64,000 bases of DNA, from positions 159,467 through 223,466 of the forward strand of contig JBAZUE010000001.1 of NCBI GenBank assembly GCA_041661605.1, given 5' to 3'. Shown in pieces: positions 2,666-61,807 of this stretch. The notes under the pieces are model-generated. The model had not been told where the DNA came from and did not search any database. It saw only the letters and a list, made by a program, of their open reading frames with translations. This DNA comes from Candidatus Omnitrophota bacterium (GTDB lineage: Bacteria; Omnitrophota; Gorgyraeia; Gygaellales; Profunditerraquicolaceae). Positions within the stretch are counted from its first letter, which is position 1. Every line of letters begins with the position of its first letter. The translations under genes were made by a program, and so were the position numbers.

Positions 2666-3769
2666 ATGAAAAAAATAATTTGCATTTTCGGTACGCGTCC
2701 GGAAGCCATTAAAATGGTGCCGGTGATAAGGGAATTAAGGAAATATCCCGGCCGTTGTAAGGTTACTATTTGTGTTACTGCTCAGCACAGGGAAATGCTG
2801 GATCAAGTTTTGTCTGTTTTTGACCTAAAGCCTGATATCGATTTAAATTTAATGCGGGATAATCAAAGTCTGGAGGAATTAACCGCCGGCAGTATTAAGG
2901 CATTGAGTAAGGTTATAGGAAAAACAAATCCGGATTTGGTTTTAGTGCAGGGAGATACTACCACAGCTATGGCGGCAGCCTTAGCCGCTTTTTACCAAAA
3001 AATCCCTATTGGGCATATTGAAGCGGGATTACGCACTGATAATATATATAATCCATTTCCCGAAGAGGTAAATCGTAAGATTATCAGCATCTTATCAGCT
3101 TACAATTTTGCCCCGACTAAAAAAGCGTGGGAAGCTTTATTGAAGGAAGATATCGACAGAGGAACGATTTTTTTTACCGGTAATACTATCGTGGATGCCT
3201 TAAAAGCAATAATTAGCAAAAAAAATGGCTCCGGTATAAAGGTTTTGCCTCCGTTAAGCAGGGAAAAGATAATTTTAGTCACTGCCCATCGCAGGGAGAA
3301 TTTCGGAAAACCCCTGAAAAATATCTGCCAGGCATTAAAAATAATCGCACAAAGAAATCAGGATATTGAAATTGTCTATCCGGTACATCTTAATCCTAAT
3401 GTTCGGTCAGCGGTTTATGGTATCCTGGATAATTTAAGCGGAGTGCGTCTGTCGGCGCCGCTTGCGTATCCTGAATTTATCGGATTATTGAACCGTTGTT
3501 ATTTAGTGCTTACGGATTCAGGCGGGATACAGGAAGAGGCTTCGGTATTAGGAAAACCCGTATTAGTTTTAAGGAATGAAACCGAGCGGCCTGAAGGGGT
3601 TGCGGCTAAGGTAGCAAAATTAGTTGGAACCGATCCGCAGGTTATTATTGAAAATGTAGAGAGATTGTTGAGTAAACCACGTGAGTATAAGCAAATGTCT
3701 AAAGCATCCGATCTTTACGGTGACGGCAGGGCAGCAGGAAAGATTGTCCGTATTATTTTAGGCATGTAA
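2666..3769 (+). CDS. wecB: UDP-N-acetylglucosamine 2-epimerase (non-hydrolysing)
   Basis: Hallmark N-terminus IFGTRPEAIKMVPV, plus HIEAGLRT, VTAHRREN and TDSGGIQEE motifs. 367 aa. Confidence 0.9.
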   Translation: MKKIICIFGTRPEAIKMVPVIRELRKYPGRCKVTICVTAQHREMLDQVLSVFDLKPDIDLNLMRDNQSLEELTAGSIKALSKVIGKTNPDLVLVQGDTTTAMAAALAAFYQKIPIGHIEAGLRTDNIYNPFPEEVNRKIISILSAYNFAPTKKAWEALLKEDIDRGTIFFTGNTIVDALKAIISKKNGSGIKVLPPLSREKIILVTAHRRENFGKPLKNICQALKIIAQRNQDIEIVYPVHLNPNVRSAVYGILDNLSGVRLSAPLAYPEFIGLLNRCYLVLTDSGGIQEEASVLGKPVLVLRNETERPEGVAAKVAKLVGTDPQVIIENVERLLSKPREYKQMSKASDLYGDGRAAGKIVRIILGM

Positions 3770-33839: not shown

Positions 33840-34772
33840 ATGATTAAAAATATACTTGTAATACGCAATGACCGGTTTGGGGAGTTTTTACTGAATATCC
33901 CGGCAATGCGCGCGCTGAAAGAGTTATATCCACAGGCAAGACTTACTTTGGCGGTAAGCCCGGCGGTAGTTGAATTGGCAGGCGCGGTTGAATGCGTTGA
34001 TGAGGCAGTGGCATGGGATCAGATCAAGGGGAATTTAAGTAAGCGTAAGTTTGATCTTTGCGTTGTTTTAAATCCTACAAAAGAGGCGCATTGGGCGGCG
34101 TTCTGGGCAGGCATCCCAGTACGCGTTGGGTATAACAGGAAGTGGGGAGTTTTGCTGACGCATAAATTAAAAGATACTAAATGCCTTGGTGATAGGCATG
34201 AAGTGGATTGTAATCTGGAGTTGGTTTCTTTGATTGGCGCAGGAAATAACGGGATTGCTTCGTCGCAAAAAACGCTCCTCGCAATGACGAAGATTGCCAG
34301 TGATAAATTTGATTTTTTAGCTGGAGCGGTTGCGATTCATCCGTTTACCAGCGATCCGCTAAAGCAGTGGCCTGTTGAAAGGTTTATGGAGTTGGCAGAA
34401 AGGATCACGCAGGAGTTGGGAATAAAGGTTGTAATTGTGGGATTGACGATGGGGAGGAGTAAAGAGATTATTTCGGCGCCTCGCAATGACGGGATTGTTG
34501 ATATGGTCAATAAAACTTCTCTTGTTGAGTTAGCCGCGTTATTGAAACGCTGCTCTTTGCTTGTGTCGGGAGATAGCGGGCCGGTGCATTTGGCAGCTTG
34601 CGTGGGTACGCCTGTGGTGGCTTTGTTCAGGAATGACTTGCCGGGGAAAACCAGCCGGCGTTGGGGGCCGTGGGGAGAGGGGCATGTGGTGATTGAAAAG
34701 GGAAATTTGCTTGAGATAAGCGTGGATGAAGTTGCGGGGGAGGCCAAAAGAATAGTCGGGCGTCATTGTTAA
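33840..34772 (+). CDS. GT9 glycosyltransferase (LPS heptosyltransferase family)
   Basis: ILVIRNDRFGEFLLNIPAMRALK N-terminus and SGDSGPVHLAA motif. Contains two in-frame copies of the CTCGCAATGACG repeat. Confidence 0.8.
   Translation: MIKNILVIRNDRFGEFLLNIPAMRALKELYPQARLTLAVSPAVVELAGAVECVDEAVAWDQIKGNLSKRKFDLCVVLNPTKEAHWAAFWAGIPVRVGYNRKWGVLLTHKLKDTKCLGDRHEVDCNLELVSLIGAGNNGIASSQKTLLAMTKIASDKFDFLAGAVAIHPFTSDPLKQWPVERFMELAERITQELGIKVVIVGLTMGRSKEIISAPRNDGIVDMVNKTSLVELAALLKRCSLLVSGDSGPVHLAACVGTPVVALFRNDLPGKTSRRWGPWGEGHVVIEKGNLLEISVDEVAGEAKRIVGRHC
34253..34297 (+). repeat. ATTGCTTCG-spacer-CTCGCAATGACG element, full copy, in frame inside the GT9 CDS
   Basis: gattgcttcgtcgcaaaaaacgctcCTCGCAATGACGaagattgc; core at 34278..34289. 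Encodes GIASSQKTLLAMTKIA. Confidence 0.8.
34472..34497 (+). repeat. CTCGCAATGACG element, partial copy, in frame inside the GT9 CDS
   Basis: ttcggcgcCTCGCAATGACGggattg; core at 34480..34491. Encodes ISAPRNDGI. Confidence 0.75.
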
Positions 34773-36083: not shown

Positions 36084-36122
36084 ATTGCTTCGGCGCCTGC
36101 GGCGCCTCGCAATGACGAGGGG
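36084..36122 (+). repeat. ATTGCTTCG-hairpin-CTCGCAATGACG element, full copy, intergenic
   Basis: attgcttcGGCGCCtgcGGCGCCTCGCAATGACGagggg; core at 36106..36117. The internal GGCGCC/GGCGCC arms form the stem. Confidence 0.85.
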
Positions 36123-37514: not shown

Positions 37515-38587
37515 TGATTAAGAAATTCCTGATTGTTAATCCGTTTGGGATTGGTGATGTTTTGTTTACTACGCCGGTGATAAAGGCGATTAAGGGGCAA
37601 TATCCGGATAGTTTTATCGGTTACTGGTCGAATTTGCGGGTTAAGCCGATATTAGAAAGCAACCCTCAAATAAATAAAGTTTTCGCCCTTTCGCGCGGGG
37701 ATCTCAAGAAAATTTACCAGGAGTCGTTCTTTAGGGCTGTCTGGAGCGCAATTAAATTAACCCGGGAGATAAAAAAAGAGCGTTTTGATATTTGCCTTGA
37801 TTTTTCTCTTGATCACCGCTATAGTTTATTTGCCAAAATAATGGGGATAGGCAGGCGTATCGGATTTAATTATAAGGGCAGGGGGAGATTCCTTAGCAGC
37901 CGTTTGGACGTAGATGGTTATCATGATAAGCATGTAGTGGAGTATTATTTAGAGCTGCTTAAATTCTTAGATATTCCAGTTAGTGATAAGGGTTTGTTTT
38001 TGGCGGTTTCTCCGGGCGGTGAATTAAAAGCGAGAAATCTGCTTGCGGCATGTGGAATCGAAGAGAAAGATTTAGTAATTGGCATTGCTCCCGGAGCAGG
38101 CGGCAGTTGGGGGAAGGATGCGGTTTATAAGCATTGGCCGGCACTAAAATTCGCTCAACTGGGGGATAGGTTGGTGGATGAGTTTAAGGCTAAGGTGGTA
38201 ATCCTGGGAGATGAATCGGAGCGTGAGATCGCCGAGGTAATATTGCATGCTATGCGCAATAAGCCGGTAGATTTGGTGGGTAAGACGGGATTAGAGATTT
38301 TCCCGGGAATAATCAAAAATTGCAATTTAGTTATTACTAATGATGGCGGGCCGATGCATATGGCGGTGGCGCTGGGGGTTCGTTCAGTTTCTGTGTTTGG
38401 GCCGGTGAGTGAAGCGGTGTATGGGCCGTTTCCTCCAGGCAGCGAGCATGCAGTTTTAAAATGGGATATGGATTGCCGGCCGTGCTATAAGAATTTCAGG
38501 TTACCGGTTTGTGATAGAGATAGGGAGTGCTTGAAGCAGGTGGATGTTGATAAGGTCTTTGATGCGGTGGCGAAGTTATTAAGTTAA
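37514..38587 (+). CDS. GT9 glycosyltransferase (LPS heptosyltransferase family)
   Basis: FLIVNPFGIGDVLFTTPVIKAIK and TNDGGPMHMAVALG motifs. TAATG overlap with manC. Confidence 0.85.
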   Translation: MIKKFLIVNPFGIGDVLFTTPVIKAIKGQYPDSFIGYWSNLRVKPILESNPQINKVFALSRGDLKKIYQESFFRAVWSAIKLTREIKKERFDICLDFSLDHRYSLFAKIMGIGRRIGFNYKGRGRFLSSRLDVDGYHDKHVVEYYLELLKFLDIPVSDKGLFLAVSPGGELKARNLLAACGIEEKDLVIGIAPGAGGSWGKDAVYKHWPALKFAQLGDRLVDEFKAKVVILGDESEREIAEVILHAMRNKPVDLVGKTGLEIFPGIIKNCNLVITNDGGPMHMAVALGVRSVSVFGPVSEAVYGPFPPGSEHAVLKWDMDCRPCYKNFRLPVCDRDRECLKQVDVDKVFDAVAKLLS

Positions 38588-38642
38588 GAATTGTTTTGTA
38601 ACTTATGGAGCTTGAGACGGTTACGTAGACTGTCTACTGAAA
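38586..38642 (+). repeat. AAGAATTGTTTTGTAAC half-element ending in the palindrome GTAGACTGTCTAC, abutting the start codon at 38643
   Basis: aagaattgttttgtaacttatggagcttgagacggttacGTAGACTGTCTACtgaaa followed by ATG. Begins within the upstream gene's stop codon. Confidence 0.8.
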
Positions 38643-41516: not shown

Positions 41517-41519
41517 TTA

Positions 41520-41575
41520 AAGAATTGTTTTGTATCTCAAGTATTTACAAATAGTTACATAGACTGTCTACTGAT
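41520..41575 (+). repeat. AAGAATTGTTTTGTA half-element ending in the palindrome TAGACTGTCTA, abutting the start codon at 41576
   Basis: aagaattgttttgtatctcaagtatttacaaatagttacaTAGACTGTCTActgat followed by ATG. Same length (56 vs 57 nt) and same ends as the copy at 38586. Confidence 0.8.
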
Positions 41576-45443: not shown

Positions 45444-45466
45444 GATTGGCCTCGCAATGACGGGGA
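45444..45466 (+). repeat. CTCGCAATGACG element, partial copy, intergenic after fmt
   Basis: gattggcCTCGCAATGACGgggat; core at 45451..45462. Confidence 0.75.
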
Positions 45467-49886: not shown

Positions 49887-50660
49887 ATGAGAAAAACGAT
49901 TATTGCCGGAAACTGGAAGATGTATAAGACGATCGTAGAGGCTATTGAGCTTGCCAATGGCTTAAAACGTGAATTTTTTAAGCTGGATTTGGAGGCGGTG
50001 GATGTAGTATTGTGTCCGGCGTTTACCGCTTTAAGCGAAGTAGCTGAGGTTTTGGCTGAAACAGGCATCGGCTTAGGCGGCCAGGATCTTTATTGGCAGG
50101 AGGAAGGGGCTTTTACCGGAGAGGTTTCTCCGCTGATGTTAAAAGACGCCGGATGTCAATATGTGATTATCGGCCACTCTGAGCGCAGGCAGTTTTTTGG
50201 TGAGACTAATGAGACTGTGAATAAGAAAATCAAGGCAGCGATTAAAGCCGGGCTTACTCCTATTGTTTGTGTGGGGGAGAATTTGCAGGAAAGAGAAGCT
50301 AATAAAACATTTAAAGTTATAGAAGACCATATCAATAACGGGTTAATAGATATAAGCGGCTCGGACATATTGAAATTAGTCATTGCTTATGAGCCGGTTT
50401 GGGCAATCGGAACGGGCAAGACCGCAACTGGCGAGCAGGCGCAGGAGGTACATAAATTTATCCGTGATTTATTAAAGAAAAATTATGGACAGGAGGCATC
50501 CGACAGCATAAGGATCCAATATGGCGGAAGCGTTAAGCCTGATAATATTACGGAGTTAATGAACAAGCCGGATGTAGACGGCGCCCTGGTGGGAGGGGCA
50601 AGCCTTAAGGCGGATTCTTTTAGCGTGATTGTCACTAAAGCTAGCGAGGTTATAAAATGA
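49887..50660 (+). CDS. tpiA: Triose-phosphate isomerase
   Basis: IIAGNWKMY, IIGHSERR, AYEPVWAIGTG and YGGS motifs. ATG at 49887, 1 nt after the pgk stop. Confidence 0.95.
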   Translation: MRKTIIAGNWKMYKTIVEAIELANGLKREFFKLDLEAVDVVLCPAFTALSEVAEVLAETGIGLGGQDLYWQEEGAFTGEVSPLMLKDAGCQYVIIGHSERRQFFGETNETVNKKIKAAIKAGLTPIVCVGENLQEREANKTFKVIEDHINNGLIDISGSDILKLVIAYEPVWAIGTGKTATGEQAQEVHKFIRDLLKKNYGQEASDSIRIQYGGSVKPDNITELMNKPDVDGALVGGASLKADSFSVIVTKASEVIK

Positions 50661-51025
50661 TGACGTTCGTAATTGTAATTCATGTGATTGCCTGTATAGT
50701 TTTGATTATCCTGGTTTTAATCCAGCGTGGAAGAGGGGCCGGGTTAGTGGAGAGTTTTGCCGGTGTGGAATCGATGTTCGGGACAAAGACCAGCGCTTTT
50801 CTTACGCGCACGACTACGATCATGTCCATAGTTTTTTTTATGACCTGCTTGAGCCTGGCGGTATTATCCGTTAAACAAAGCAAGTCATTGATGCGCGATG
50901 TTAAGGCTCCCGCTCCGGTGAAGGTTGAGGCTGTGAAGACAGTAGCGGCTCCGGTTAAAGCAGAGGCTCCTAAAACAGAAGCAGTAAAAGAAAAAGTTCA
51001 GCCGGAGGCAGGAAAAGCTGAGTAA
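50657..51025 (+). CDS. secG: Preprotein translocase subunit SecG with a low-complexity C-terminal extension
   Basis: Two TM helices with LIQRGRGAGL...FG..TSAFLTR between them. Follows tpiA, the conserved order. Tail rich in AP(V)K(V/A)EA. Confidence 0.85.
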   Translation: MMTFVIVIHVIACIVLIILVLIQRGRGAGLVESFAGVESMFGTKTSAFLTRTTTIMSIVFFMTCLSLAVLSVKQSKSLMRDVKAPAPVKVEAVKTVAAPVKAEAPKTEAVKEKVQPEAGKAE

Positions 51026-51051: not shown

Positions 51052-51080
51052 GGCTACCAGATTAACTGGTAGCCTTTGTT
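51052..51080 (+). terminator. Rho-independent terminator after secG
   Basis: GGCTACCAG-attaa-CTGGTAGCC followed by TTTGTT. Confidence 0.75.
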
Positions 51081-51083
51081 ATA

Positions 51084-51199
51084 AAGACGTTTTATATAAC
51101 TAATTCATTCTGTTTAACTTACAAAACAATTCTTTTGATTTAGCAAAAAGTAATTGTTTTGTAACCTCAAGGCATATAAAGAGATACATAAAGCGTCTT
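51084..51199. repeat. 116-bp nested-palindrome element (12-bp terminal inverted repeats plus an inner GTTACAAAACAATT/AATTGTTTTGTAAC inverted repeat)
   Basis: Left end aagacgttttat and right end ataaagcgtctt (1 mismatch). Inner boxes at 51119..51136 and 51145..51165. Lies between the secG terminator and the MFS gene. Confidence 0.75.
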
Positions 51200-51207
51200 G
51201 TTAATCT

Positions 51208-52353
51208 ATGAAAGATAAGAAGTTATTTTGGATATTTGCGCTGAGCAGCGCGGTTTATTTTACGCAAGGCATAGAAGGCCTGCCTGGCCAGGGGCTGTTT
51301 TATTACCTTAAAGAAACCCTGCATTTCTCGCCGGAAAAGATAATGATCCTTGGCAGCCTGACTACTTTTGCCTGGATGGTGAAGCCGTTCATCGGTTATG
51401 TCATAGACCATTCTTTCAGTAAGAAATGCTGGATATTTATTTCTCTGGGCCTGGATATAATTTTTGTTTTATTCCTGGGTTTGATGCAGATGCCGATTAT
51501 TTTCCTGGTGATTTTGCTTGCGGTTACTTCCGCCAACGCCGCTTTCCGCGATGTAGCGGTTGACGGCATAATGTGCGTGGAAGGCAAGAAATACCAGGCT
51601 ACCGGGAAAATCCAGAGCATCCAATGGGTTTCAATTTTAGTGGCAGGCCTGTTTACCGGTATAGGCGGGGCTTTTATCGCCGAGAAATGGGATTATAAGA
51701 CTGCTTTTTTATGTCTCGTTCCTATTTATTTGCTCGTAGGACTGCCGGCTTATTTTTACAGGGAGGAGCCGGGAGAGAAAAAATATGGATCTTTATTAGC
51801 TGATTTAAAAAGGCTTTTTAGCGATAAAAAGATATTGATTATCGGGTTATTTATTTTTCTGTACAAGTATTCACCTTCTTTTGGGACGCCTTTATTTTTT
51901 ATGCAGCGGGATACGTTTAAGTGGGGCAAGATGTGGATTGGTACGTTAGGGACTATCAGCACGGTCTGCGGGGTTGTCGGTTCGCTGCTCTATTATAAAT
52001 TCAGCCAGAGGATAAATATCAAGAAATGGCTTTATTTTTCTGTATTCCTGGGAGCCTTAACTACTTTAAGTTACTTGTATTATACCCCTGTAACTGCTGT
52101 TATTTATGATACAATCTATAGTTTTCTGGGAATGTTTATCTTCTTGATGGTCATGGATTTTATGGCCCGGCATTCAATTAAGGGGCTAGAGGCAACTTCA
52201 TTTGCCCTGCTGTGCAGTTTAAATAATTTGTCCGGGGTAGCCAGTAATTTGTCCGGTGCGTTCCTACTGCCGCTTGTCGGTTTAAAATGGTTGATTGTTT
52301 TATCCGCGTTGACCAGCTTCCTTTGTTTGCCGTTGATCCAAAAAATAGAGTAA
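51208..52353 (+). CDS. MFS transporter, folate-biopterin (BT1)-like
   Basis: About 12 TM segments. N-terminal YFTQGIEGLPGQGLFYYLKE...WMVKPFIGYVID resembles the BT1 family. Confidence 0.6.
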   Translation: MKDKKLFWIFALSSAVYFTQGIEGLPGQGLFYYLKETLHFSPEKIMILGSLTTFAWMVKPFIGYVIDHSFSKKCWIFISLGLDIIFVLFLGLMQMPIIFLVILLAVTSANAAFRDVAVDGIMCVEGKKYQATGKIQSIQWVSILVAGLFTGIGGAFIAEKWDYKTAFLCLVPIYLLVGLPAYFYREEPGEKKYGSLLADLKRLFSDKKILIIGLFIFLYKYSPSFGTPLFFMQRDTFKWGKMWIGTLGTISTVCGVVGSLLYYKFSQRINIKKWLYFSVFLGALTTLSYLYYTPVTAVIYDTIYSFLGMFIFLMVMDFMARHSIKGLEATSFALLCSLNNLSGVASNLSGAFLLPLVGLKWLIVLSALTSFLCLPLIQKIE

Positions 52354-52400
52354 TAATTATTTATATTGCGTTTTAGGGGGAGATTTTATATAATATAATC

Positions 52401-53000
52401 ATGATGGAAGCGCTTAGGCCATATATACTTAGCTTTATTCCGCTGTTTGTGGCGGTAGACGCCATCGGGAATATCCCGATCTTTTTTTCTCTGGTTGAGG
52501 GGTCCTCAAAAACCCAGAAGAATAAGATAATTTTTGACGCGGTTATCACCGCAATGGTTATCGCGGTTATTTTTATGTTTTTAGGCACCTGGGTTTTTTC
52601 GCTCTTAGGCATAACCATACCTGATTTTCAGATTGCCGGAGGAGCGTTATTGTTTGTTATCGCTGTTCGTCTTTTATTGCCCGGGGTGCAGAAGAGCGTA
52701 TTGACCAGTTCTCATGATAAAGATATGGGGGTATTTCCGCTGGGCACGCCATTAATAACCGGGCCGGCGGTTTTGACTACCACGCTGATGATGATGAACA
52801 GCTTTGGCGCCGCGGTCACATTAGTTTCATTAATTTTGAATATGTTTTTTGTCTGGATTACTTTGGTCAAGACTGATACAATTATGAAGGTATTCGGCCC
52901 CAGCGGCACAAGGGCTTTTTCCAAGATAATGTATATATTGCTGGCGGCTATCGCGGTGATGATGATCAGGCATGGCATAATCGGAGCGTTTTTAAAATGA
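52401..53000 (+). CDS. MarC-family (UPF0056) integral membrane protein
   Basis: 199 aa, 6 TM segments. FIPLFVAVDAIGNIPIF and FPLGTPLITGPAVLTT motifs. Confidence 0.75.
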   Translation: MMEALRPYILSFIPLFVAVDAIGNIPIFFSLVEGSSKTQKNKIIFDAVITAMVIAVIFMFLGTWVFSLLGITIPDFQIAGGALLFVIAVRLLLPGVQKSVLTSSHDKDMGVFPLGTPLITGPAVLTTTLMMMNSFGAAVTLVSLILNMFFVWITLVKTDTIMKVFGPSGTRAFSKIMYILLAAIAVMMIRHGIIGAFLK

Positions 53001-54220
53001 TGCGCAAAGTTTTAACATTTATTATGGCTGGTGGAAAAGGAGAGCGGTTGCTTCCTTTGACCAAAGACCGCACTAAACCCGCAGTGCCTTTTGGCGGGAT
53101 ATACCGGATTATCGATTTTACTTTAAGCAATTGCATTAATTCGGGGATGCGCAAGATTTATATCCTTACACAGTATAAATCCGCATCTTTGCAGAGGCAT
53201 ATCCGCCTGGGCTGGAATTTTCTGCCTTCGGAGTTGGGGCAATTTATAGAGTTGCTTCCCGCCCAGCAGCGCATAGGTGATTCCTGGTATATGGGGACGG
53301 CTGATGCGATTTATCAGAACCTTTATACGCTGGAAATGGACCGTCCGGATGAAGTTTTGATTTTGGCTGGAGACCATATCTATAAAATGGATTATTATTC
53401 CATGATTGATGTGCATCGCGAACAAGACGCTGAGCTGACAGTTGGGGTGGTGGAGATAGAAAAGAGTAAAGCCAAACATCTTGGGGTGGTTGAGGTGGAT
53501 CCGTCAGGCAAGGTCACGGGTTTTTACGAGAAACCGTCTAATCCTAAAACTATTCCCGGAAAACCGGACCAGATTTATGGCTCAATGGGTATCTATGTGT
53601 TTAAGCAATCTGTCCTGATGCAGGAGCTGCTTGAGGATGCTAAAAATAATAAATCTTCGCATGATTTTGGCAAAGATATTATCCCGCAGATGTTAAAGAG
53701 AGGGATGAAGATTGTCGCCTATAATTTCCGCGATAAAGATAAAAATGAAGGATATTGGAGAGATATAGGTACGATCGATGCTTATTATGAAGCGAATATG
53801 GAGTTGATCCAGGTTAACCCTACCTTTAATCTTTATGATCAGGAGTGGCCGATAAGGACATTCCAGGAGCAGTATCCTCCGGTCAAGACTGTGCATTCAG
53901 GAGATCGTGAAGAAGGAAGGGTCGGGCTGGTGCTTGATTCTGTGGTTTCTGAAGGCTGCGTGGTTTCCGGGGGCCGTGTGCAGCGTTCAATACTATCTCC
54001 TAATGTAAGGATAAATAGTTTTTCCGAAGTATATGATTCAATACTTATGGAAGGCGTTAATGTCGGCAGGTACGCTAAGATTAAGCGGGCGATTATCGAT
54101 AAAGATGTTAATATCCCCCAGGGGATGATTATTGGTTTTAATCTGGAAGAAGACAAAAAAAGATTTTTTGTCAGCGCATCGGGAATTGTGGTGGTAGCCA
54201 AGGGCACGGAGATTAAATAG
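52997..54220 (+). CDS. glgC: Glucose-1-phosphate adenylyltransferase
   Basis: IMAGGKGERLLPLTKDRTKPAVPFGGIYRIIDFTLSNCINSG, WYMGTADAI and the C-terminal left-handed beta-helix repeats. Confidence 0.9.
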   Translation: MMRKVLTFIMAGGKGERLLPLTKDRTKPAVPFGGIYRIIDFTLSNCINSGMRKIYILTQYKSASLQRHIRLGWNFLPSELGQFIELLPAQQRIGDSWYMGTADAIYQNLYTLEMDRPDEVLILAGDHIYKMDYYSMIDVHREQDAELTVGVVEIEKSKAKHLGVVEVDPSGKVTGFYEKPSNPKTIPGKPDQIYGSMGIYVFKQSVLMQELLEDAKNNKSSHDFGKDIIPQMLKRGMKIVAYNFRDKDKNEGYWRDIGTIDAYYEANMELIQVNPTFNLYDQEWPIRTFQEQYPPVKTVHSGDREEGRVGLVLDSVVSEGCVVSGGRVQRSILSPNVRINSFSEVYDSILMEGVNVGRYAKIKRAIIDKDVNIPQGMIIGFNLEEDKKRFFVSASGIVVVAKGTEIK

Positions 54221-54222
54221 GG

Positions 54223-54672
54223 ATGATTAGAAAGGCGAAAATAAGTGATATAAAGCAAATTCAGGAGTTGATTGCCTGTTTTGCCAAGCGGGATGAGATG
54301 CTGCCCCGTTCGCTGAATGAACTTTATGAGAATATAAGGGATTTCTGGGTATATGAAGATAAAGGCAGGGTAGCTGGATGCGCGGCGCTGCATATCTCCT
54401 GGGATGGCTTAGCGGAAATTAAATCTTTGGCAGTGGCTAAAAATAAACAGGGCAAAGGTATCGGGCAGGACCTGGTGGTAGCCTGCATGGCGGAAGCCAG
54501 GGTTATGGGGGCAAAGAAGGTTTTTGTGTTAACATATAAACCGGAATTTTTTAAAAAGTTAGGTTTTAAAAGAATCAAGCATGATGCCCTTCCGCATAAA
54601 ATCTGGGCGGAATGTATTAACTGCTGTAAATTCCCCAATTGCCAGGAAATTGCCCTGTTAAAAATCTTGTAA
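54223..54672 (+). CDS. GNAT-family N-acetyltransferase (short ArgA-like type)
   Basis: Acetyl-CoA motif LAVAKNKQGKGIGQDLV. C-terminal KIWAECINCCKFPNC tail. Confidence 0.75.
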   Translation: MIRKAKISDIKQIQELIACFAKRDEMLPRSLNELYENIRDFWVYEDKGRVAGCAALHISWDGLAEIKSLAVAKNKQGKGIGQDLVVACMAEARVMGAKKVFVLTYKPEFFKKLGFKRIKHDALPHKIWAECINCCKFPNCQEIALLKIL

Positions 54673-54694
54673 AATCTAAATAATATGGTACAAT
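54667..54694 (+). promoter_or_regulatory. Extended -10 promoter upstream of leader copy A
   Basis: TTGTAA (54667-72), 16 nt ending in TGg, TACAAT (54689-94). Confidence 0.4.
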
Positions 54695-54730
54695 CTTAAA
54701 ACTTGTTATTAATTGGTCATTGGTGGTTTG

Positions 54731-54785
54731 ACACCCGGCCCGAAAGGAAGTGGCCGGTGTGCCCTTTGCGGGCAAGGAGGAAGAG
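54731..54785 (+). promoter_or_regulatory. Structured 5' leader, copy A (two hairpins plus strong SD) upstream of the acyl-CoA dehydrogenase/etf genes
   Basis: ACACCCGGCC-cgaaaggaagt-GGCCGGTGT, then GCCC-tttgc-GGGC, then AAGGAGGAAGAG and ATG. Near-identical to 63137..63190. Confidence 0.6.
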
Positions 54786-55940
54786 ATGGATTATTTGTTG
54801 ACTGATGAACAGAAGATGATCAAGGAGTTGGCGCATAAGATTGCCGAAGATAAGATTCGTCCGGCTGCGGCTAAATATGATATCAGTGAAGAGTATCCCT
54901 GGGATGTTTTAAAGGTTATGGCTGAATCTGATATGTTTGGATTATTCATCCCTGAAGAGTACGGCGGGTTTGCCACCAGTGTTTTTAATTTATGCCTTGC
55001 TACTGAAGAGTTTTCCCGGGCCTGCGGAGGTATCGCTGTTTGCTATGCTGCCAGCGCCTTAGGGACATTTCCGATTGTTTTATTCGGTGATGATGAGCAG
55101 AAGAAGAAATACCTGCCGGATTTGGCGAAAGGCAAGAAGGTAGCGGCATTTGCGATTACTGAACCGGAGGCAGGCTCAGATGCTTCAGGGATAAAGACTA
55201 CCGCGAAAAAAGAAGGCGATTATTATATTTTAAACGGTCTGAAGCATTTTATTACCAATGGCGGTGACGCCGAGACTTATGTTGTGATTGCCATGACTAA
55301 TAAGTCAAAAGGCGCCCGTGGGGCTTCAGCTTTTATTGTAGAAAAGGGGACGCCGGGTTTTACTTTCGGTAAGAAAGAGGATAAATTCGGCATCCGTGCA
55401 TCGAGTACGCGTGAGTTAATCTTTACGGATTGCAAGATTCCCGCAAGAAACCTTCTTTCTAAAGAGGGTATGGGTTTTATCGTGACGATGAAGACTTTTG
55501 ATATGTCTCGACCGGGAGTAGCTGCGCAGGCTTTAGGTATTGCTCAGGGCGCGTTAGAGTTAGCGGTAAAATACGTGCGCGAGAGGGTACAGTTTGGAAA
55601 ACCTATTTCAAGTTTCCAGGGAATTCAGTGGATGTTAGCGGATATGGCAACGGAGGTTGAGGCAGCGCGCGGCCTGGTATATTCGACTGCCAGGATGGTT
55701 GATGCCGGAATCAAGGACGTGGCAAAAGAATCCGCGATGGCCAAGATGTATGCTTCGGATGTAGCGATGAAGGTTACGGTTGATGCTTTGCAGTTATTCG
55801 GCGGGTATGGTTATATGAAGGATTATCCAATTGAGAAATATGTGCGCGATGCCAAGATTACCCAGATTTACGAGGGGACAAATCAGGTGCAGCGTAATAT
55901 TATCGCTTTGGCATTGATCAAAGAAATGGCTAAAATTTAG
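54786..55940 (+). CDS. Acyl-CoA dehydrogenase (butyryl-CoA dehydrogenase-like)
   Basis: Start moved to the ATG at 54786 behind [23 protein letters not shown] motif, QLFGGYGY motif and catalytic YEGT near the C-terminus. Confidence 0.9.
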
Positions 55941-56011
55941 GTAATTATAGTTAATAATAAGTAAAAGTAAGTAAGTTTGAGTAAGTAAGGTAATCAGATA
56001 GGAATTAAAAT

Positions 56012-56794
56012 ATGAATATAGTAGTTTGTATAAAACAGGTCCCTGAGACAACTGAAGTAAGGATTAATCCTGAGACAAATACGCTTATGCGCGAAGGGGT
56101 AAAGTCAATTATTAACCCCTTTGATATGTACGCGATTGAAGAAGCGGTGCGGCTTAAGGAAAGATTCGGGGGTAAGGTTTCTGTGTTGACAATGGGGCCG
56201 CCGCAAGCGGATGGGGCTTTACGCGAAGCAATATCTATGGGGGCAGATGAAGGATTCTTGGTCTGCGACCGCGCTTTTGCCGGAAGCGATACCTGGGCAA
56301 CCAGCTATACTTTGGCGGGAGCAATTAAGAAATTGGGCGCGTTTGATCTGATTATTTGCGGCAAACAGGCTTCAGACGGGGATACGGCGCAGGTTGGGCC
56401 GGGCATATCCACGCATTTAAATATTCCGCAGGTAACTTATGTAAAAAAAATAGAAGAGGCAACTGATAAATTGATGAAGGTTGAGAGGATGCTGGAGGAA
56501 GGATTTGAAATCATCGAGACTCCGCTGCCGGCGCTTTTAACCGTAGTTAAAGAGATCAATGAGCCGAGGATACCTTCGTTAAGAGGATTGATGAAGGCAA
56601 AGTCGGCTAAGATTACTACTTTTACCCAGAAAGAATTACAGTTGGATCCGCAGCAGATTGGCCTGTGCGGCTCACCTACTCAGGTTGTAAAGATATTTAC
56701 TCCTACTCCCAGGGTTGGCGGACAGATGCTTACGGGCGAGATTCCCGATATAGCCAGGCAACTGGTAGATTTAGTTAAAGGCGAGGTTAATTAA
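56012..56794 (+). CDS. etfB: Electron transfer flavoprotein beta subunit
   Basis: MNIVVCIKQVPET..., LTMGPPQA and ICGKQASDGDTAQVGP motifs. Confidence 0.9.
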   Translation: MNIVVCIKQVPETTEVRINPETNTLMREGVKSIINPFDMYAIEEAVRLKERFGGKVSVLTMGPPQADGALREAISMGADEGFLVCDRAFAGSDTWATSYTLAGAIKKLGAFDLIICGKQASDGDTAQVGPGISTHLNIPQVTYVKKIEEATDKLMKVERMLEEGFEIIETPLPALLTVVKEINEPRIPSLRGLMKAKSAKITTFTQKELQLDPQQIGLCGSPTQVVKIFTPTPRVGGQMLTGEIPDIARQLVDLVKGEVN

Positions 56795-56795
56795 G

Positions 56796-58040
56796 ATGCC
56801 GATTTCGATTATTATTGAGAAATGCACGGGTTGTTCTCTTTGCGTAAAAGCCTGCCCGTTTGACGCAATCCGTATAATGGACAAGCTGGAGAGCAGTGGT
56901 TCGGCCTCCGATAGCCGAAGCCAGAAGAAAGCGGTAATCGATTTAAATAAATGCACTCTTTGCGGAGCCTGCAAGGACGCCTGTAAGTTTAAGGCAGTTT
57001 TGTTGGAGAAAACTCCGGCTAAATGTGATTTGCCGGATATAAAAGGTTATAAGGGGATATGGGTGTTTGTTGAGCAGAAGAATGGCAGGGTGCAGTCGGT
57101 TTCATATGAGTTATTAGGCAAGGCGCAGGAGTTGGCCAGGAAATTAAATTGTCAGGTGAGCGGGGTTTTGATCGGTAATAAATTAGAGGACCAATTGGAT
57201 GAGCTGATCTTTTGCGGAGCGGATAACATATACCTGGTAGAGGATCCGGCGCTAGCGAATTTTCAGGATGAGCCGTATACGAATATTTTAGTTGAGTTGG
57301 TAAGAAAATATAAACCGGAGGTCCTTTTATGCGGGGCAACAAATATAGGCAGGTCTTTAATTTCGCGCGTGGCGATAAATATTAAAGCCGGTTTGACCGC
57401 GGATTGCACCGGCCTGGATATCGATCCTGATAAAAAGATACTATTACAGACGCGACCAGCTTTTGGCGGAAATATTATGGCGACAATCATTTCCCCAAAT
57501 TACCGGCCGCAGATGGCGACAGTGCGGCATAAAGTATTTACTCCAATGCCGGCGGATAAAAAACGCAAGGGTAAAGTTATCCGGGAAAATTTTGACAGTT
57601 CTCTTTATGTCTCGCGTACGAAGCTTTTGGATATCATCGAAGAAATTGAATCTACGGTAAATTTATCCGAAGCGGATGTTATTGTCTCCGGGGGTCGAGG
57701 TATGGGGGGAGCTGAAAATTTCAAGATGCTGGAAGAATTAGCGCATGTGTTGGGCGCGGCAGTCGGCTCAAGCCGTGCGGCAGTGGACAGCGGCTGGATG
57801 CCTTATTCGCACCAGGTTGGACAGACCGGCAGGACCGTGGCGCCGAAGATTTATATTGCCTGTGGAATAAGCGGCCAGATACAGCATCTTGTGGGAATGC
57901 AATCCTCGAAGATTATTATCGCCATCAATAAAGATCCCGAAGCTCCGATTTTTAAGGTAGCTACTTACGGAATTGTCGGTGATTTATTCCAGGTTGTTCC
58001 TGCTTTAATCCAAGCTTTTAAGTCTTCTCTGCGAAAATAA
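56796..58040 (+). CDS. etfA: Electron transfer flavoprotein alpha subunit with an N-terminal 2x[4Fe-4S] ferredoxin domain
   Basis: CTGCSLCVKACP and CTLCGACKDAC cluster motifs in the first ~70 aa, then the canonical EtfA sequence (SGGRG, YIACGISGQIQHLVGM). Confidence 0.9.
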   Translation: MPISIIIEKCTGCSLCVKACPFDAIRIMDKLESSGSASDSRSQKKAVIDLNKCTLCGACKDACKFKAVLLEKTPAKCDLPDIKGYKGIWVFVEQKNGRVQSVSYELLGKAQELARKLNCQVSGVLIGNKLEDQLDELIFCGADNIYLVEDPALANFQDEPYTNILVELVRKYKPEVLLCGATNIGRSLISRVAINIKAGLTADCTGLDIDPDKKILLQTRPAFGGNIMATIISPNYRPQMATVRHKVFTPMPADKKRKGKVIRENFDSSLYVSRTKLLDIIEEIESTVNLSEADVIVSGGRGMGGAENFKMLEELAHVLGAAVGSSRAAVDSGWMPYSHQVGQTGRTVAPKIYIACGISGQIQHLVGMQSSKIIIAINKDPEAPIFKVATYGIVGDLFQVVPALIQAFKSSLRK

Positions 58041-58060
58041 GCTTACCCGCAAAAATAAAT

Positions 58061-58192
58061 AAGACGCTTTATGTATCCTCTTGGCATATCTAATGGTTAC
58101 AAAACAATTATTTTCTGCCTAATTTCAGCTATCTAAATCAAAAGAATTGTTTTGTAACTTATTGATAGGAATAGGTTTAGATAAAGCGTCTT
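58061..58192. repeat. 132-bp nested-palindrome element of the same family
   Basis: Perfect 12-bp terminal inverted repeat aagacgctttat / ataaagcgtctt. Inner boxes gttacaaaacaattatttt (58096..58114) and aaaagaattgttttgtaac (58140..58158). Confidence 0.8.
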
Positions 58193-58300
58193 ACGGAGTT
58201 ACGGAGTTTGCGTATACTGTCTACTTTGCATGAATATGCATTGTTTTGCTCTATAACAACCCTGATTTCAGCTATATGTCAAAGAATGTAAAGATTTTCC

Positions 58301-58329
58301 TTGACAAGATTGCTGAAGTTATTTATAAT
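58301..58329 (+). promoter_or_regulatory. Sigma70-like promoter for the HTH-smc genes
   Basis: TTGACA (58301-06), 17 nt, TATAAT (58324-29). Confidence 0.55.
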
Positions 58330-58337
58330 ATTTTCCA

Positions 58338-58374
58338 GATTGCTTCGCCACTTCGTGGCTCGCAATGACGAGGA
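58338..58374 (+). repeat. ATTGCTTCG-hairpin-CTCGCAATGACG element, full copy, in the 5' leader of the HTH-smc genes
   Basis: gattgcttcGCCACttcGTGGCTCGCAATGACGaggag; core at 58359..58370. The internal GCCAC/GTGGC stem differs in sequence from copy 36084 but still pairs. Confidence 0.85.
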
Positions 58375-58385
58375 GAACAGGGGTT

Positions 58386-58568
58386 ATGGTAAATACAAAT
58401 TTGATGACTATTGAAGATCTGGCGGATTATTTAAAAGTAACGCGCAGGACTATTTATGATTGGCTAAAGCATAATAAGATTCCGGCGCTAAAGCTCGTCG
58501 GGCAATGGCGCTTTAAAAAAGATAAGATTGATGACTGGCTTGAAGGCCAGCAGTCGCAACCACATTAG
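58386..58568 (+). CDS. Small excisionase/MerR-type helix-turn-helix DNA-binding protein
   Basis: LMTIEDLADYLKVTRRTIYDWLKHNKIPALKLVGQWRFKKDKIDDWL matches the HTH_17 'excisionase family' pattern. The ATG at 58386 behind AGGAG is preferred because the track's ATG at 58365 lies inside a repeat core. Confidence 0.75.
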   Translation: MVNTNLMTIEDLADYLKVTRRTIYDWLKHNKIPALKLVGQWRFKKDKIDDWLEGQQSQPH

Positions 58569-58582
58569 AAAGGGAGTTAACC

Positions 58583-61500
58583 ATGTATTTTAAAAGATTA
58601 GAACTTCTGGGTTTTAAATCATTTTGCGATAAGACCGTGCTTAACTTTGAGCCCGGGATTACGGCGGTGGTTGGCCCAAATGGCTGTGGGAAATCAAATA
58701 TTTTTGATTCAATCCGCTGGGTATTAGGAGAGCAGTCGGCAAAGTCGCTGCGCGGCTCAGAGATGCTGGATGTCATTTTTAACGGCGCGGACAATAAGGA
58801 GCCGTTGAGTATGGCCGAGGTTAGCCTGGCTTTTGATAATTCTACCCGTTTCTTTAATGTTGACCATCCGGAGGTTTTGATTACGCGCCGGCTTTTCAGG
58901 AGCGGCGAAAGCGAGTACCTGTTGAATAAGGCCGTTGTGAGGCTTAAGGATATACTGGATTTGTTATTAGGCACAGGGATAGGAGCGGAAAGTTATTCCA
59001 TTATCGCGCAGGGAAAGATAGACCTGGTTTTAAGCAGCCGTCCGGAAGACCGGCGTATGGTTTTTGATGAAGCAAGCGGCATAAGTAAATATAAAGCCCA
59101 GAAGAGGGAAACTACGCGCAAGCTGGATGAGACAGAACAAAACCTGCTGCGTGTAAATGATATTGTCGCCGAGGTCAAGCGGCAGATCAGCTCTCTGGAG
59201 CGCCAGGCCAATAAAGCGCGCAGGTACAAAGAGGTTTTTGAGGAATTAAAATTAAAAGAAACTGACCTGGCAATCATGGATAAAAAGGATTTTCTTAAAC
59301 AAAAAAATGAGATTGCCGGAAAACTGGAAGATTTAAAAAAAGAGGATTTGGTATTAGCGGATGCGGTCGCTGAACTGGAGGTTAAGATCGCTAACCGCCA
59401 GTCTGAATTAAAGGCATTAGAGGAAAGTTTGATGGAGGGGCGCAGCCAGATACTTAATCTGGAGAACAGCCTGGTGCGCAATAATGAACACATCGTTTTT
59501 AACCAGCAGCGTATCGCGGAGCTCGAGGAAAATAGCCAGGTTTTAGAATCACAGATTGAGCAGGCAAGAAGCAAGCTGCTGCAGGATGAAGAAAAGCTGG
59601 AGAAGGTTCGGGTTGAATACTCAAGCCTGAAACAGAATATAGATGAGAAGCAGTCTGTATTATGGCAGAAAGAAGAGGAGATCAATAAGCTTGGCTCTTC
59701 GATTAAGAGTTCACTGGAAGCTATTTCTGAAAGCAAAAAGCTTATCCTGGATTTGGAAACCAGGATTTCCAATACCCATAATGAAGTAGGTGAGTTTAAT
59801 TCCAAACATCAGGTATTCCTGGCGCGCAAAAAGAGGCTGGAGATCGAGAAGGCAAAGGTTTATGAAGAAAAGGTTATTTCCGAGGAGGCCTTAAATAAGG
59901 TTACGCAGGAGCTGGCAAGCACCCGGCAGCTGGTGGAAGATTTCAGGCAAAAAATCGCTAATGTAAAGACCAGCCTTGAACATGAAGGATTAAATTTAAA
60001 CGGGATTACCCAGGAGATTACCAGGCTTGAAAATGAAAAGCTTACCCTGGTTTCACATAAAGAATTCCTGGAGAAACTGAAGAATAAATATGATGATATC
60101 GGCGAGTCACTTAACGCGGTGATTTATCTGGACAACCTGCCTAAGGAAAGTACAACCGGGTTGGTGGTGAAGATCCAGAATCAATCGGCTTTAAGCGATG
60201 AGGACAAGGCGTATTTTGGCTCCGCGGCCTTCAGGATAAGCGGAGAGGCCAAACCCATTGAGTTAGACACTCAGAATATCAGCGAAAAGATCGCCAACCT
60301 TGAAGAAAATCTCGGAGAGCTAAAGAACAGGAAGCTGCTGCGCCAGACTTGTATTTCAGAATTAACTAAGATGTCGGATGAATTGGAGCAGGAGCTGCGT
60401 AACCACGAGATTTCTTTAGCCAATAAGGAATCCAGCCACGCTACTACTTTGGAGCAGTTTAATAAAATAAAAGAAGAAGAGGATGTTATTGTTATGGAAT
60501 TGGCGGATGTGGCCCGTGAAATCTTTACGATCGAGCAAAATTTAGCCGATGCCCAGGCTAAGCTTTCCAGCTTAAACAATGAAGAGAGGCTAATGCAGGA
60601 TTCAATCGTACAGGAAGAAGATAATATTTCCTTAAACAGCAAGGCGCGTGAAGAGGTGCTGGTTTTAATTACCCAGACCAAGACGGAGATTGAGGCCTTA
60701 AACAAGCGTTTTAGTTCTGACGCGGCAACCTTAAAAATCCTCGATGAAACTTACGCGCAGGATAAGGCCAGCCTTGATAATATCGAGAGGCAGATATCTG
60801 ATGCAAAAGAACGCCAGCAGGGTCTAAGGGCTGAGATCGTTGATTGCCAGAATAAAATTCATGAATCAGAGGCGCAGATCAAAGAAAAGAAAGTATCTCT
60901 ATCGGATGTCGAGTTTAAATATAACGAAGTATCCAGCGGTACGGTCGGGGTGGCCAAAAGGATCGAGACTGACCGTAAGCATCTAGAGCAGATAAAAAAT
61001 CAGCTGCATGAACTGGAGATGCAGGATAAGGATCTGGATTACCGGTATTCGGCAATAAAAGAGAGGATGGCGTCGGCATATAAGATTGATTTAGACCTTT
61101 TGGAGGAGCCGGCTAAAGAATTAGACAGGCAGGCTTTGTCCTCTGAAATCAGCGAATTAAAAAGAAAGCTGGATTCTTACGGCACGGTTAATCTGGTGGC
61201 TATTGAAGAGTATGATGAGTTAAAACAGCGCTATGATTTTCTTATCCAGCAACAGACTGATCTTTTGAATGCCAAGGAGTCGATGCATCAGGCAATCTTA
61301 AAAATCAACCGTACGACCAAGCAGATGTTTATGGAAACCTTCGAGAAGGTGAAGGTGGAGTTTAAAAATTATTTCCGCCTGCTTTTTAACGGAGGGGATG
61401 CCCAGTTGTTTTTGGTCGATGAGAATGATCCGCTTGAGTCCGGGATTGAGATTATCTGCCGGCCTCCGGGAAAGAAATTACAGAATGTGCTCCTTTTAAG

Positions 61501-61807
61501 CGGCGGGGAAAAGAGTATGTCGGCGATCGCGCTGATCTTCGCTATTTTTAAAGTCAAGCCTTCGCCGTTCTGCATACTGGATGAGATTGACGCGGCCCTT
61601 GATGAGGCTAATGTAGACAGGTTCTCCAGGGTTTTGCAGGAGTTCTCCAAGACTTCCCAGTTTATCGTGATTACGCATAATAAGAAGACGATTGTGAACG
61701 CCAGCGTTATGTATGGCATTACCATGCAGCAGTCGGGAGTCTCAAAGATAGTTTCGGTAAAATTGTCGCAGGATAAGCAAAAGCAGGAACAGCCGGTTAC
61801 GGTTTAA
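58583..61807 (+). CDS. smc: Chromosome segregation protein SMC with an atypically short hinge region
   Basis: Walker A GPNGCGKSNIFDSIRWVLGE. Signature and Walker B LSGGEKSMSAIALIFAIFKVKPSPFCILDEIDAALD. Long coiled coils. The central region (~60080..60290) lacks a recognisable canonical hinge. Confidence 0.85.
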   Translation: MYFKRLELLGFKSFCDKTVLNFEPGITAVVGPNGCGKSNIFDSIRWVLGEQSAKSLRGSEMLDVIFNGADNKEPLSMAEVSLAFDNSTRFFNVDHPEVLITRRLFRSGESEYLLNKAVVRLKDILDLLLGTGIGAESYSIIAQGKIDLVLSSRPEDRRMVFDEASGISKYKAQKRETTRKLDETEQNLLRVNDIVAEVKRQISSLERQANKARRYKEVFEELKLKETDLAIMDKKDFLKQKNEIAGKLEDLKKEDLVLADAVAELEVKIANRQSELKALEESLMEGRSQILNLENSLVRNNEHIVFNQQRIAELEENSQVLESQIEQARSKLLQDEEKLEKVRVEYSSLKQNIDEKQSVLWQKEEEINKLGSSIKSSLEAISESKKLILDLETRISNTHNEVGEFNSKHQVFLARKKRLEIEKAKVYEEKVISEEALNKVTQELASTRQLVEDFRQKIANVKTSLEHEGLNLNGITQEITRLENEKLTLVSHKEFLEKLKNKYDDIGESLNAVIYLDNLPKESTTGLVVKIQNQSALSDEDKAYFGSAAFRISGEAKPIELDTQNISEKIANLEENLGELKNRKLLRQTCISELTKMSDELEQELRNHEISLANKESSHATTLEQFNKIKEEEDVIVMELADVAREIFTIEQNLADAQAKLSSLNNEERLMQDSIVQEEDNISLNSKAREEVLVLITQTKTEIEALNKRFSSDAATLKILDETYAQDKASLDNIERQISDAKERQQGLRAEIVDCQNKIHESEAQIKEKKVSLSDVEFKYNEVSSGTVGVAKRIETDRKHLEQIKNQLHELEMQDKDLDYRYSAIKERMASAYKIDLDLLEEPAKELDRQALSSEISELKRKLDSYGTVNLVAIEEYDELKQRYDFLIQQQTDLLNAKESMHQAILKINRTTKQMFMETFEKVKVEFKNYFRLLFNGGDAQLFLVDENDPLESGIEIICRPPGKKLQNVLLLSGGEKSMSAIALIFAIFKVKPSPFCILDEIDAALDEANVDRFSRVLQEFSKTSQFIVITHNKKTIVNASVMYGITMQQSGVSKIVSVKLSQDKQKQEQPVTV

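Follow-up and report, generated by a model that had tools for sequence, protein, structure and literature searches.

Intergenic palindromes of Candidatus Omnitrophota as probable non-autonomous doublets of a 52-bp repeat linked to a Y1 (HUH) transposase

Repetitive extragenic palindromic (REP) sequences form doublets that fold into hairpins (REPINs) and are accompanied by REP-associated tyrosine transposases (RAYTs), as described by Bertels & Rainey 2011 (PMC3116915; PMC3337134; PMC5581495). In a related group, the TIRtrons or TIRYTs, the genes of tyrosine transposases carry long terminal inverted repeats (TIRs), and the moderately abundant TIR families comprise single, dimeric or clustered copies (Di Nocera et al. 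2013, PMC3733652; subclass 2.1 in PMC6006769). The CGTC-tagged REPs have stems of 8-9 bp, loops of 4-5 nt and, reportedly, no associated transposase gene (Di Nocera et al. 2013, PMC3733652). Here, a 64-kb stretch of Candidatus Omnitrophota DNA, referred to as the window, was analyzed, in which two intergenic palindromes follow secG (copy 1, 51084-51199) and etfA (copy 2, 58061-58192). It was concluded that they are very probably non-autonomous doublets of a 52-bp repeat, which also forms the inverted ends of an IS200-like Y1 (HUH) transposase gene of the RAYT/TIRYT type.

The alignment of six occurrences in the window, every one of them intergenic, showed that the basic repeat is a half-unit of 52 bp and not the 116-bp palindrome. 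The half-unit consists of box A, (A)AAG/T-AATTGTTTTGTAAC, a variable 17-nt spacer and box B, GTTAyA-TAAAGCGTCTT, with TAAAGC at a constant distance of 23 nt behind box A. Copy 1 is a 116-bp head-to-head doublet with box A inside, box B outside and a 20-nt linker, placed between the secG terminator and the start codon of a major facilitator superfamily gene (MFS/BT1). Its left half-unit (51084-51135, minus strand; AAAGAATTGTTTTGTAAG...GTTATATAAAACGTCTT on that strand; nhmmer 41.7 bits, E 4.9e-11) faces the secG terminator, and its right half-unit (51148-51199, plus strand; AAGTAATTGTTTTGTAAC...GATACATAAAGCGTCTT; 48.1 bits, E 4.9e-13) ends 8 nt from the MFS/BT1 ATG at 51208. The terminator-like hairpin of secG (51054-51077, plus strand; GGCTACCAG-ATTAA-CTGGTAGCC followed by TTTGTTAT) is outside the element, marks the left insertion boundary of copy 1 and is kept in relatives with and without the element. 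Copy 2, downstream of etfA, is a 132-bp doublet with a 35-nt linker. Its left half-unit (58061-58113, minus strand; nhmmer 34.1 bits) has 24 instead of 23 nt between box A and TAAAGC, and the right one occupies 58141-58192 (plus strand; 42.1 bits). The orientation of copy 2 is the inverse of copy 1, with the half subtypes swapped.

The extents of the two copies and their positions after SecG (50657-51025) and EtfA (56796-58040) were given correctly in an original prediction made from the letters of the window, and so was the outer inverted repeat AAGACG(T/C)TTTAT...ATAAAGCGTCTT, which is free of mismatches in copy 2 and has a single one in copy 1 (4 occurrences at ≤1 mismatch versus 0.64 expected). 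The inner repeat, said there to be perfect in both, is perfect in copy 2 only, as the left arm of copy 1, CTTACAAAACAATT, contains one mismatch. Similarly, the inner spacings of 8 and 25 nt proposed for copies 1 and 2 hold for the extended arms (a loop of ~9 nt in copy 1, 25 nt in copy 2) and not for the inner 14-mers, which are 20 and 35 nt apart. The inner box AATTGTTTTGTAAC was matched 7 times at ≤2 mismatches when 1.04 matches were expected, and 0 of 100 shuffles reached 7. Both full copies were real, but two solo half-units (38586-38636 and 41519-41569) had been missed. The reported likeness of the 5′ arm of copy 2 to the reverse complement of the 3′ arm of copy 1 was also found, and it reflects the different subtypes of the halves and the inversion of copy 2 relative to copy 1.

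Further, species-representative genomes were scanned once with the strict pattern AATTGTTTTGTA-N25-26-TARANYGTCT, and 67 matches were obtained in 59 loci in addition to the 6 in the window (loci from related genomes carry L-numbers below). Nearly all of the 59 loci belonged to metagenome-assembled genomes (MAGs) of Candidatus Omnitrophota from about 25 species, several being labelled "uncultured Planctomycetales". Among 70 aligned instances, conservation was also recorded at positions outside the search pattern (-4 to -1, 12-14, 19, 26, 30-36 and 47); it spanned -4 to +47 and ended abruptly after GTCTT. A profile search revealed more degenerate partners for many of the apparent singles. All 25 pairs were head-to-head with box A inside and none were tail-to-tail, the commonest length being 116 bp (linker of 20 nt); within a doublet, the halves belonged to systematically different subtypes. 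The outer end of the unit was CGTC, replaced by TGTC in the two solo units of the window. Within one clade, doublets at unrelated loci or in different species were ~90% identical as judged by eye, including the spacers and the linker, and the homology stopped exactly at AAGACG and CGTCTT. Such identity of the whole element at unrelated loci with sharp ends indicates a dispersed repeat spreading as a unit. No consistent target-site duplication was found in the flanks of 24 doublets, where TA, GTTA and others were tried.

In some loci, accessory genes were bracketed by near-identical doublets or units. These were an ORF6N-domain gene (L013, 150-1001), RhuM/Fic (L043, 4835-6375), a YhcG-like PDDEXK nuclease gene (L058, 456-1958) and an open reading frame (ORF) of 156 aa having no Pfam match (L024, 637-1371). 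They look as if they had been inserted in copies of the element or transported between them.

About 170 ORFs near the units were inspected, and two of them resembled REP-associated tyrosine transposases. Both matched Pfam Y1_Tnp (E 1.7e-11 and 1.1e-13), and the best and only NCBIfam match was REP_Tyr_transpos with 65 and 73 bits. The only PDB match at E ≤ 1 was the E. coli TnpA-REP (4ER8, E 2.3e-5), with the HUH motif and the catalytic tyrosine aligned, and no TnpA of the IS608/ISDra2 type was matched at that threshold. The transposase is ~228 aa long (proteins of 227-244 aa were scanned), and Y1_Tnp alone was reported by Pfam. By tblastn, four transposase genes were found among the loci selected through the units (L026, L046, L056 and L057), each with a reverse half-unit 5′ of the gene and a forward half-unit at the 3′ end. 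The upstream regions of L026 and L056, the two that were read closely, contain a sigma-70-like promoter after the 5′ half-unit. The stop codon lies in or directly beside box A, as in L057, where ...AGA ATT GTT TTG TAA encodes the last residues. The layout of the full element is [box B-box A]-promoter-transposase-[box A-box B], and the 116-bp doublet looks like this element minus the gene.

Since these four loci had been selected via the units, a test on loci selected by protein was needed. The protein search gave 876 homologues at E ≤ 1e-20, and all those with a named source were Candidatus Omnitrophota. Inverted half-unit flanks were present in seven of seven loci chosen by protein homology alone (L140, L141, L142-144, L145, L146/147, L148 and L149), giving a total of eleven transposase loci with one inverted half-unit per side. 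Locus L140 shares a 25,062-bp contig of the MAG SO_2017_LW4_87 with L006, and other contigs of this MAG are ~90-92% identical to the window. The box sequences were near-constant while the four compared transposases had diverged to 44-55% identity. In one MAG, transposase 3′ ends were located on two contigs (L020 and L052), which hints at more than one transposase copy there. The assignment of halves to the 5′ or 3′ end of the transposase by spacer identity was not decisive (0.4-0.6). Only the 8 nt adjoining box B gave a hint, the '...GATACATAAAGCG' halves appearing closer to the 3′ end and the '...GGTTAGATAAA' halves closer to the 5′ end.

Several smaller features were noticed at these loci. 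A motif similar to CGTCTATTAnnnTAGA, in the form of a small TCTA...TAGA hairpin that includes CGTCT, is conserved in the 5′ untranslated region of the transposase gene just ahead of the Shine-Dalgarno sequence (L140 ~790-830, L142 ~2460-2500, L146 ~1455-1500, L148 ~360-405, L149 ~1460-1500 and L046 ~3725-3745 on the minus strand) and could be an extra site of transposase binding or autoregulation. Short tandem duplications of the element termini or of the transposase 3′ coding end stand beside units in L142 (3222-3262, TATGCCAAGAAGAAGAGG repeated after the right unit), L149 (1313-1413, CATCCCAGACGTTTTAG repeated) and L043 (4807-4884), and they may be scars of repeated cleavage and joining. In L046 (3846-3925), one end of the transposase element is 5 nt from the 3′ CCA of a tRNA gene that was read by eye on the opposite strand.

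Two intergenic sites were compared on the basis of 80 loci encoding MFS/BT1 orthologues. The window DNA was 90-96% identical to contigs of the MAGs STD1_97 and SO_2017_LW4_87. In the secG-MFS gap, the full doublet was present in the window, L060, L063 and L003, only the gene-facing half with the conserved linker was present in L022, and the gap was empty in L061. The latter locus encodes a 96% identical MFS protein, and its terminator hairpin runs directly into the ATG. In the gap 3′ of the MFS gene, which is empty in the window (52354-52400) and in L061, L016 has a full doublet, L060 has the gene-facing half alone, and the doublet of L066 is degenerate. The nucleotide identity between L016 and the window was 92-96%, and the right junction of the half in L060 was that of L016. 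Close relatives have gained or lost whole doublets and single halves, with the limits of the changes falling at the unit ends.

The suggestion of the original prediction that the palindromes represent a REP-like non-autonomous mobile element was in agreement with the copies in about 25 species, the filled, half-filled and empty sites, and the Y1 transposase ends. Locus-specific regulatory DNA had been expected to show no further copies and the same sequence in orthologous intergenic regions; instead, copies were found elsewhere and the orthologous regions were variable. The designation as a miniature inverted-repeat transposable element (MITE) needs refinement: target-site duplications are absent and the partner enzyme is of the HUH type, so that REPIN/REP-RAYT or "TIRtron" is the better name.

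Other palindromes were seen at the same places. In other lineages, the secG-MFS gap contains an unrelated palindrome, GGGACGGTTCT...AGAACCGTCCC. Other Omnitrophota lineages have, at the same intergenic positions, a palindromic element of a different type, GGGGACGGTTCT(A)TTTTT...AAAAATAGAACCGTCCCC (also in variants, e.g., GGGACAGTTCT). It was seen in the secG-MFS gap (L062, L065, L066, L069, L073, L075, L090, L091, L095 and L101) and in the region upstream of the monogalactosyldiacylglycerol (MGDG)-synthase-like gene (L025 and L055). Its form is terminator-like, and its sequence is similar to GGGGWSAS, the motif reported for TIRYT repeats. The GGGACRGTTCT palindrome family of the relatives is close to GGGGWSAS, with some copies matching it, such as GGGGACAG in L025, and no palindrome of this type was found in the window. 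The different palindrome may belong to a second transposase, for instance, the distant Y1 homologue of L027 (504-1100).

It was proposed that a transposase encoded elsewhere in the genome acts in trans on single-stranded DNA. The enzyme would recognise the conserved boxes either as the weak hairpin TTTTGTAAC/GTTAYATAAA of one half or as a foldback of both halves, cleavage would take place near the CGTC(TT) terminus, and the doublet would be copied or moved into other intergenic DNA during replication. No target-site duplications are expected from single-strand HUH transposition. The solo half-units would be remnants, and those retained mostly point at the start of the next gene.

The elements are RAYT-less doublets of the REPIN or "TIRtron" type and are of a known kind, their Omnitrophota family being previously undescribed. 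Neither the motif nor the phylum Omnitrophota was found in the REP/RAYT-type literature searched, and literature queries with the motif strings and "Omnitrophota promoter motif" returned nothing relevant. The similarity to REPIN-RAYT systems extends to short extragenic repeats arranged mostly as inverted doublets of fixed length, singlets resembling decayed remnants, a Y1/HUH gene flanked by the same repeats, the lack of target-site duplication and persistence across related lineages. In contrast to the compact GC-rich hairpin of 20-40 nt, the unit described here is 52 bp long and has two boxes around a variable 17-nt spacer; the doublet halves differ in subtype, and the ~228-aa transposase scores under the NCBIfam RAYT cut-off. 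The host phylum is also different, as REPINs have been described mainly in Pseudomonas and enterobacteria (PMC3116915; PMC3337134; PMC5581495).

As in TIRtrons, a RAYT-like gene is flanked by long inverted repeats, one of which overlaps the 3′ end of the gene, and the repeats are also scattered as singles and head-to-head dimers. However, GGGGWSAS, found in most described TIRs (PMC3733652), is absent from the unit consensus, and the C-terminal helix-turn-helix of subclass 2.1 (PMC6006769) was not detected by Pfam in the proteins of 227-244 aa, where a divergent domain is possible. The CGTC-tagged REPs share the CGTC outer end, the dominance of head-to-head dimers and the intergenic location mostly between genes of the same direction, whereas the Omnitrophota unit has a much greater length and a linked Y1 transposase. 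With IS200/IS605 elements (IS608, ISDra2) there are in common a Y1 HUH transposase, the lack of target-site duplication and, likely, single-strand replication-coupled transposition; in those elements, however, the subterminal hairpins differ between left and right, and long inverted repeats are missing. The enterobacterial and neisserial miniature elements, ERIC and Correia, are likewise imperfect intergenic palindromes of ~100-150 bp, variably present between strains and with possible effects on the expression of neighbour genes. Correia elements duplicate TA. They are not known to have a linked HUH transposase or any sequence similarity to the Omnitrophota units.

Some observations weigh against the proposed transposon origin. 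The differences in presence and absence could be deletions rather than insertions, and the site 3′ of the MFS gene looks old, since L066 holds a degenerate copy. The REP_Tyr_transpos scores (65-73 bits) are under the curated cut-off of 80, and no homologue of the Y1 transposase was detected by tblastn within the window, as had been noted in the original prediction. The half-unit is bipartite and weakly self-complementary, unlike a textbook REP hairpin of 20-40 nt: it can form an internal stem of only 9 bp (TTTTGTAAC/GTTAYATAAA), which has a loop of 17 nt and an invariant T-T mismatch, and neither covariation nor compensatory changes were found for the within-unit hairpin. The activity of the transposase, the strand used and the cleavage site were deduced by analogy with the E. 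coli TnpA-REP (4ER8) and IS608. Finally, orthologous solo units keep the boxes at ~90-95% (estimated by hand) while the spacers drift to ~60%, which implies selection or homogenisation in place that a purely selfish remnant does not need.

The last point leads to a possible, if not very likely, alternative, in which the half-unit is an outward promoter reading from the box B end and producing short-leader or leaderless mRNAs, the doublets are bidirectional and, with the same degree of doubt, the solo units are the working form. It is compatible with a transposon origin via co-option. The two solo units of the window both have the box B variant GTTACrTAGACTGTCTAC, carry the 14-mer of box A at 38589 and 41523, and fill gaps of 55-60 nt. 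The first (38586-38636, plus strand, box B variant GTTACGTAGACTGTCTAC) fills the 55-nt gap between a heptosyltransferase gene and a DegT aminotransferase gene, the ATG of which is 7 nt downstream and lacks a Shine-Dalgarno sequence. Its orthologues are in L008, L019, L025, L029 and L055; it is missing from L049, where an AAGGAG Shine-Dalgarno sequence precedes DegT in place of the unit. The second (41519-41569, plus strand, a variant of the same GTTACGTAGACTGTCTAC type) is in the gap between the genes of a haloacid dehalogenase (HAD)-type hydrolase and an MGDG-synthase-like glycosyltransferase, with the ATG 6 nt downstream. It has orthologues in L019, L029, L041 and L049, and other palindromes take its place in L025 and L055.

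The promoter alternative was favored by the orientation of the solo units, 26 of which face a co-oriented gene start versus 4 facing a gene 3′ end in raw counts. When orthologues were collapsed and the transposase ends removed by hand, the ratio was ~12 to 2 (binomial P ~0.007 by our own arithmetic). Such a bias, however, could stem from replication-coupled, strand-specific HUH insertion, the genes being nearly all on one strand, and about half of the paired halves face gene 3′ ends; the 5′-side unit of the L046 transposase faces the 3′ end of a tRNA gene. In both half-filled sites (L022 and L060) the retained half is the gene-facing one, and the boxes are held in place across species while the spacers diverge, as given above. 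GTCT is often 4-10 nt from an ATG without a Shine-Dalgarno sequence, units further away are followed by a normal one, and the unit-less DegT orthologue of L049 has AAGGAG; on the other hand, MFS and MGDG-synthase orthologues are without a Shine-Dalgarno sequence even where the unit is absent.

The lineage appears to use leaderless-type promoters, such as TTGCGT-N17-TATAAT-N6-ATG at 52372-52403, but the conserved boxes contain no sigma-70-like -35/-10 pair at 16-18 nt, TTGTAA and TAAAGC/TAGACT being 24 nt apart. A scan of the region with the sigma-70 consensus gave 16 sites versus 17.6 expected, and none of them pairs the conserved boxes; two low-scoring sites (9/12) were located in copy 2, one in the left spacer/box A and one in the linker. 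Moreover, classic TTGACA-N17-TATAAT promoters are used elsewhere in the window, and copy 2 is followed by a perfect sigma-70 promoter of its own at 58301-58329. As a separate observation, the promoter at 52372-52403 is of the sigma-70 type and belongs to a MarC-family gene 3′ of the MFS gene, with 6 nt to the ATG and no Shine-Dalgarno sequence. It is conserved in L016, L060-L062, L068, L070 and many others, which suggests that leaderless mRNAs are used in this lineage.

Specific classes of sites were compared with the unit as well. Sigma-70 was rejected on spacing by hand against the unit consensus, and the ECF/sigma-E type (GTAAC...CGTCT) has a spacing of 28-29 nt, which exceeds the required distance by ~12 nt. 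The motif content led to the rejection of sigma-54, sigma-28 and the Bacteroidetes -33/-7 type. An integration host factor site in the linker (ATCAA...TTG) was off by one in spacing, and the linker is not conserved. It was suggested, with considerable doubt, that the host has taken over the solo half-units, the sequence of which is nearly constant across many Omnitrophota species, for use as a portable promoter directed outward or as a cis-regulatory landing pad of another sort, to which the RAYT itself might bind. The resulting mRNAs would have short leaders and no Shine-Dalgarno sequence. Equally doubtful targets of such co-option are the cell-envelope and housekeeping genes DegT, MGDG-synthase-like glycosyltransferase, alaS and MFS.

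A structured RNA, proposed in the original prediction, is an unlikely explanation. The doublet would be co-transcribed, and its long hairpin would serve as a 3′-end stabiliser, a terminator or an RNase III site, as in some REP and Correia elements. Most doublets are between genes of the same direction and are probably co-transcribed, an action at the RNA level has been reported for REPs of other bacteria (PMC3733652), and the doublets fold with -29 to -44 kcal/mol (z-scores from -4.8 to -9.5). Any inverted repeat folds, however, and both strands fold about equally here, with no strand-specific G-U signature. The spacer complementarity was 0.35 within a doublet versus 0.45 between unrelated doublets, and several columns were never complementary, so compensatory evolution was not observed. 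There is no U-run after the doublet hairpin, Rfam gave 0 matches at gathering thresholds and only hairpin-like hits below them, and solo halves are conserved without a partner. The other suggestion made at first, a paired binding site for a dimeric regulator, gained no particular support, as the half-units are also found singly and the halves of a pair differ in subtype.

It is very unlikely that the units are attC-like sites of site-specific recombination bounding gene cassettes. Near-identical doublets do bracket ORF6N (L013), RhuM/Fic (L043) and YhcG-like (L058) genes, and GTAAC/GTTAC resembles the attC core sites with one mismatch each; but these motifs are internal and not at the element boundaries (attC core: RYYYAAC/GTTRRRY), units also flank essential genes at positions conserved between species, no integron integrase or tyrosine/serine recombinase was found near the units among ~170 ORFs inspected by eye and with selected Pfam scans, and the enzyme associated with the units is an HUH transposase. 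A classical MITE moved by cut-and-paste from a DDE transposon (e.g., IS630/Tc1-like, as for Correia or RUP) is the least probable of all despite the terminal inverted repeats, the uniform short length, the intergenic location and a chance-looking fragment in L058 that adjoins a doublet and was taken by eye for the C-terminus of an IS630-type transposase, as neither TA nor another target-site duplication was present in the 24 doublets and no DDE transposase was seen flanked by units, which 11 of 11 Y1 transposase loci are.

Other features of the window were recorded in addition to the doublets and the solo units. A possible degenerate remnant of box B, GTTACGGAGTTTGCGTATACTGTCTACT, lies just outside copy 2 (58198-58225, plus strand); it is weak, was read by comparison with 38616-38636 and was not detected by nhmmer. 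A second repeat family, CTCGCAATGACG, is present in five exact copies versus 0.18 expected at ≤1 mismatch, all on the plus strand (34278-34289, 34480-34491, 36106-36117, 45451-45462 and 58359-58370). In many cases, ATTGCTTCG and a short stem rich in GC, e.g., ATTGCTTCGGCGCCTGCGGCGCCTCGCAATGACGAGG, stand before it, and similar sequences were seen in L079 and, in reverse, in L073. Three of the five copies (36106, 45451 and 58359) either lie in the last ~20 nt ahead of the start codon predicted for the next gene or span it, and the copy at 58359 overlaps the start of a helix-turn-helix gene (58365). The perfect sigma-70 promoter downstream of copy 2 (TTGACA-N17-TATAAT, 12/12) precedes the genes at 58365-61807, which encode a 67-aa HTH_17 protein of the excisionase type and a 1074-aa SMC_N protein. 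An exact-sequence look-up of the MFS protein returned no record.

The repeat family explains conserved intergenic blocks of 50-130 bp in Omnitrophota MAGs, and calls of ORFs, promoters or RNAs in such blocks should be treated with caution as they may be spurious. It extends the systems of repeats plus tyrosine transposases to an uncultivated phylum with small genomes, and it ties a CGTC-ended repeat to a Y1 transposase, whereas CGTC repeats had been reported to lack a dedicated transposase (PMC3733652). With its constant boxes and diverged transposases, the family is useful for studies of long-term persistence, and its units may be usable as markers in binning and strain typing. If the solo units were indeed regulatory, they would present a clear case of transposon ends co-opted in place, and the RAYT-repeat system would then be, beyond selfish DNA, a phylum-wide distributor of regulatory modules.

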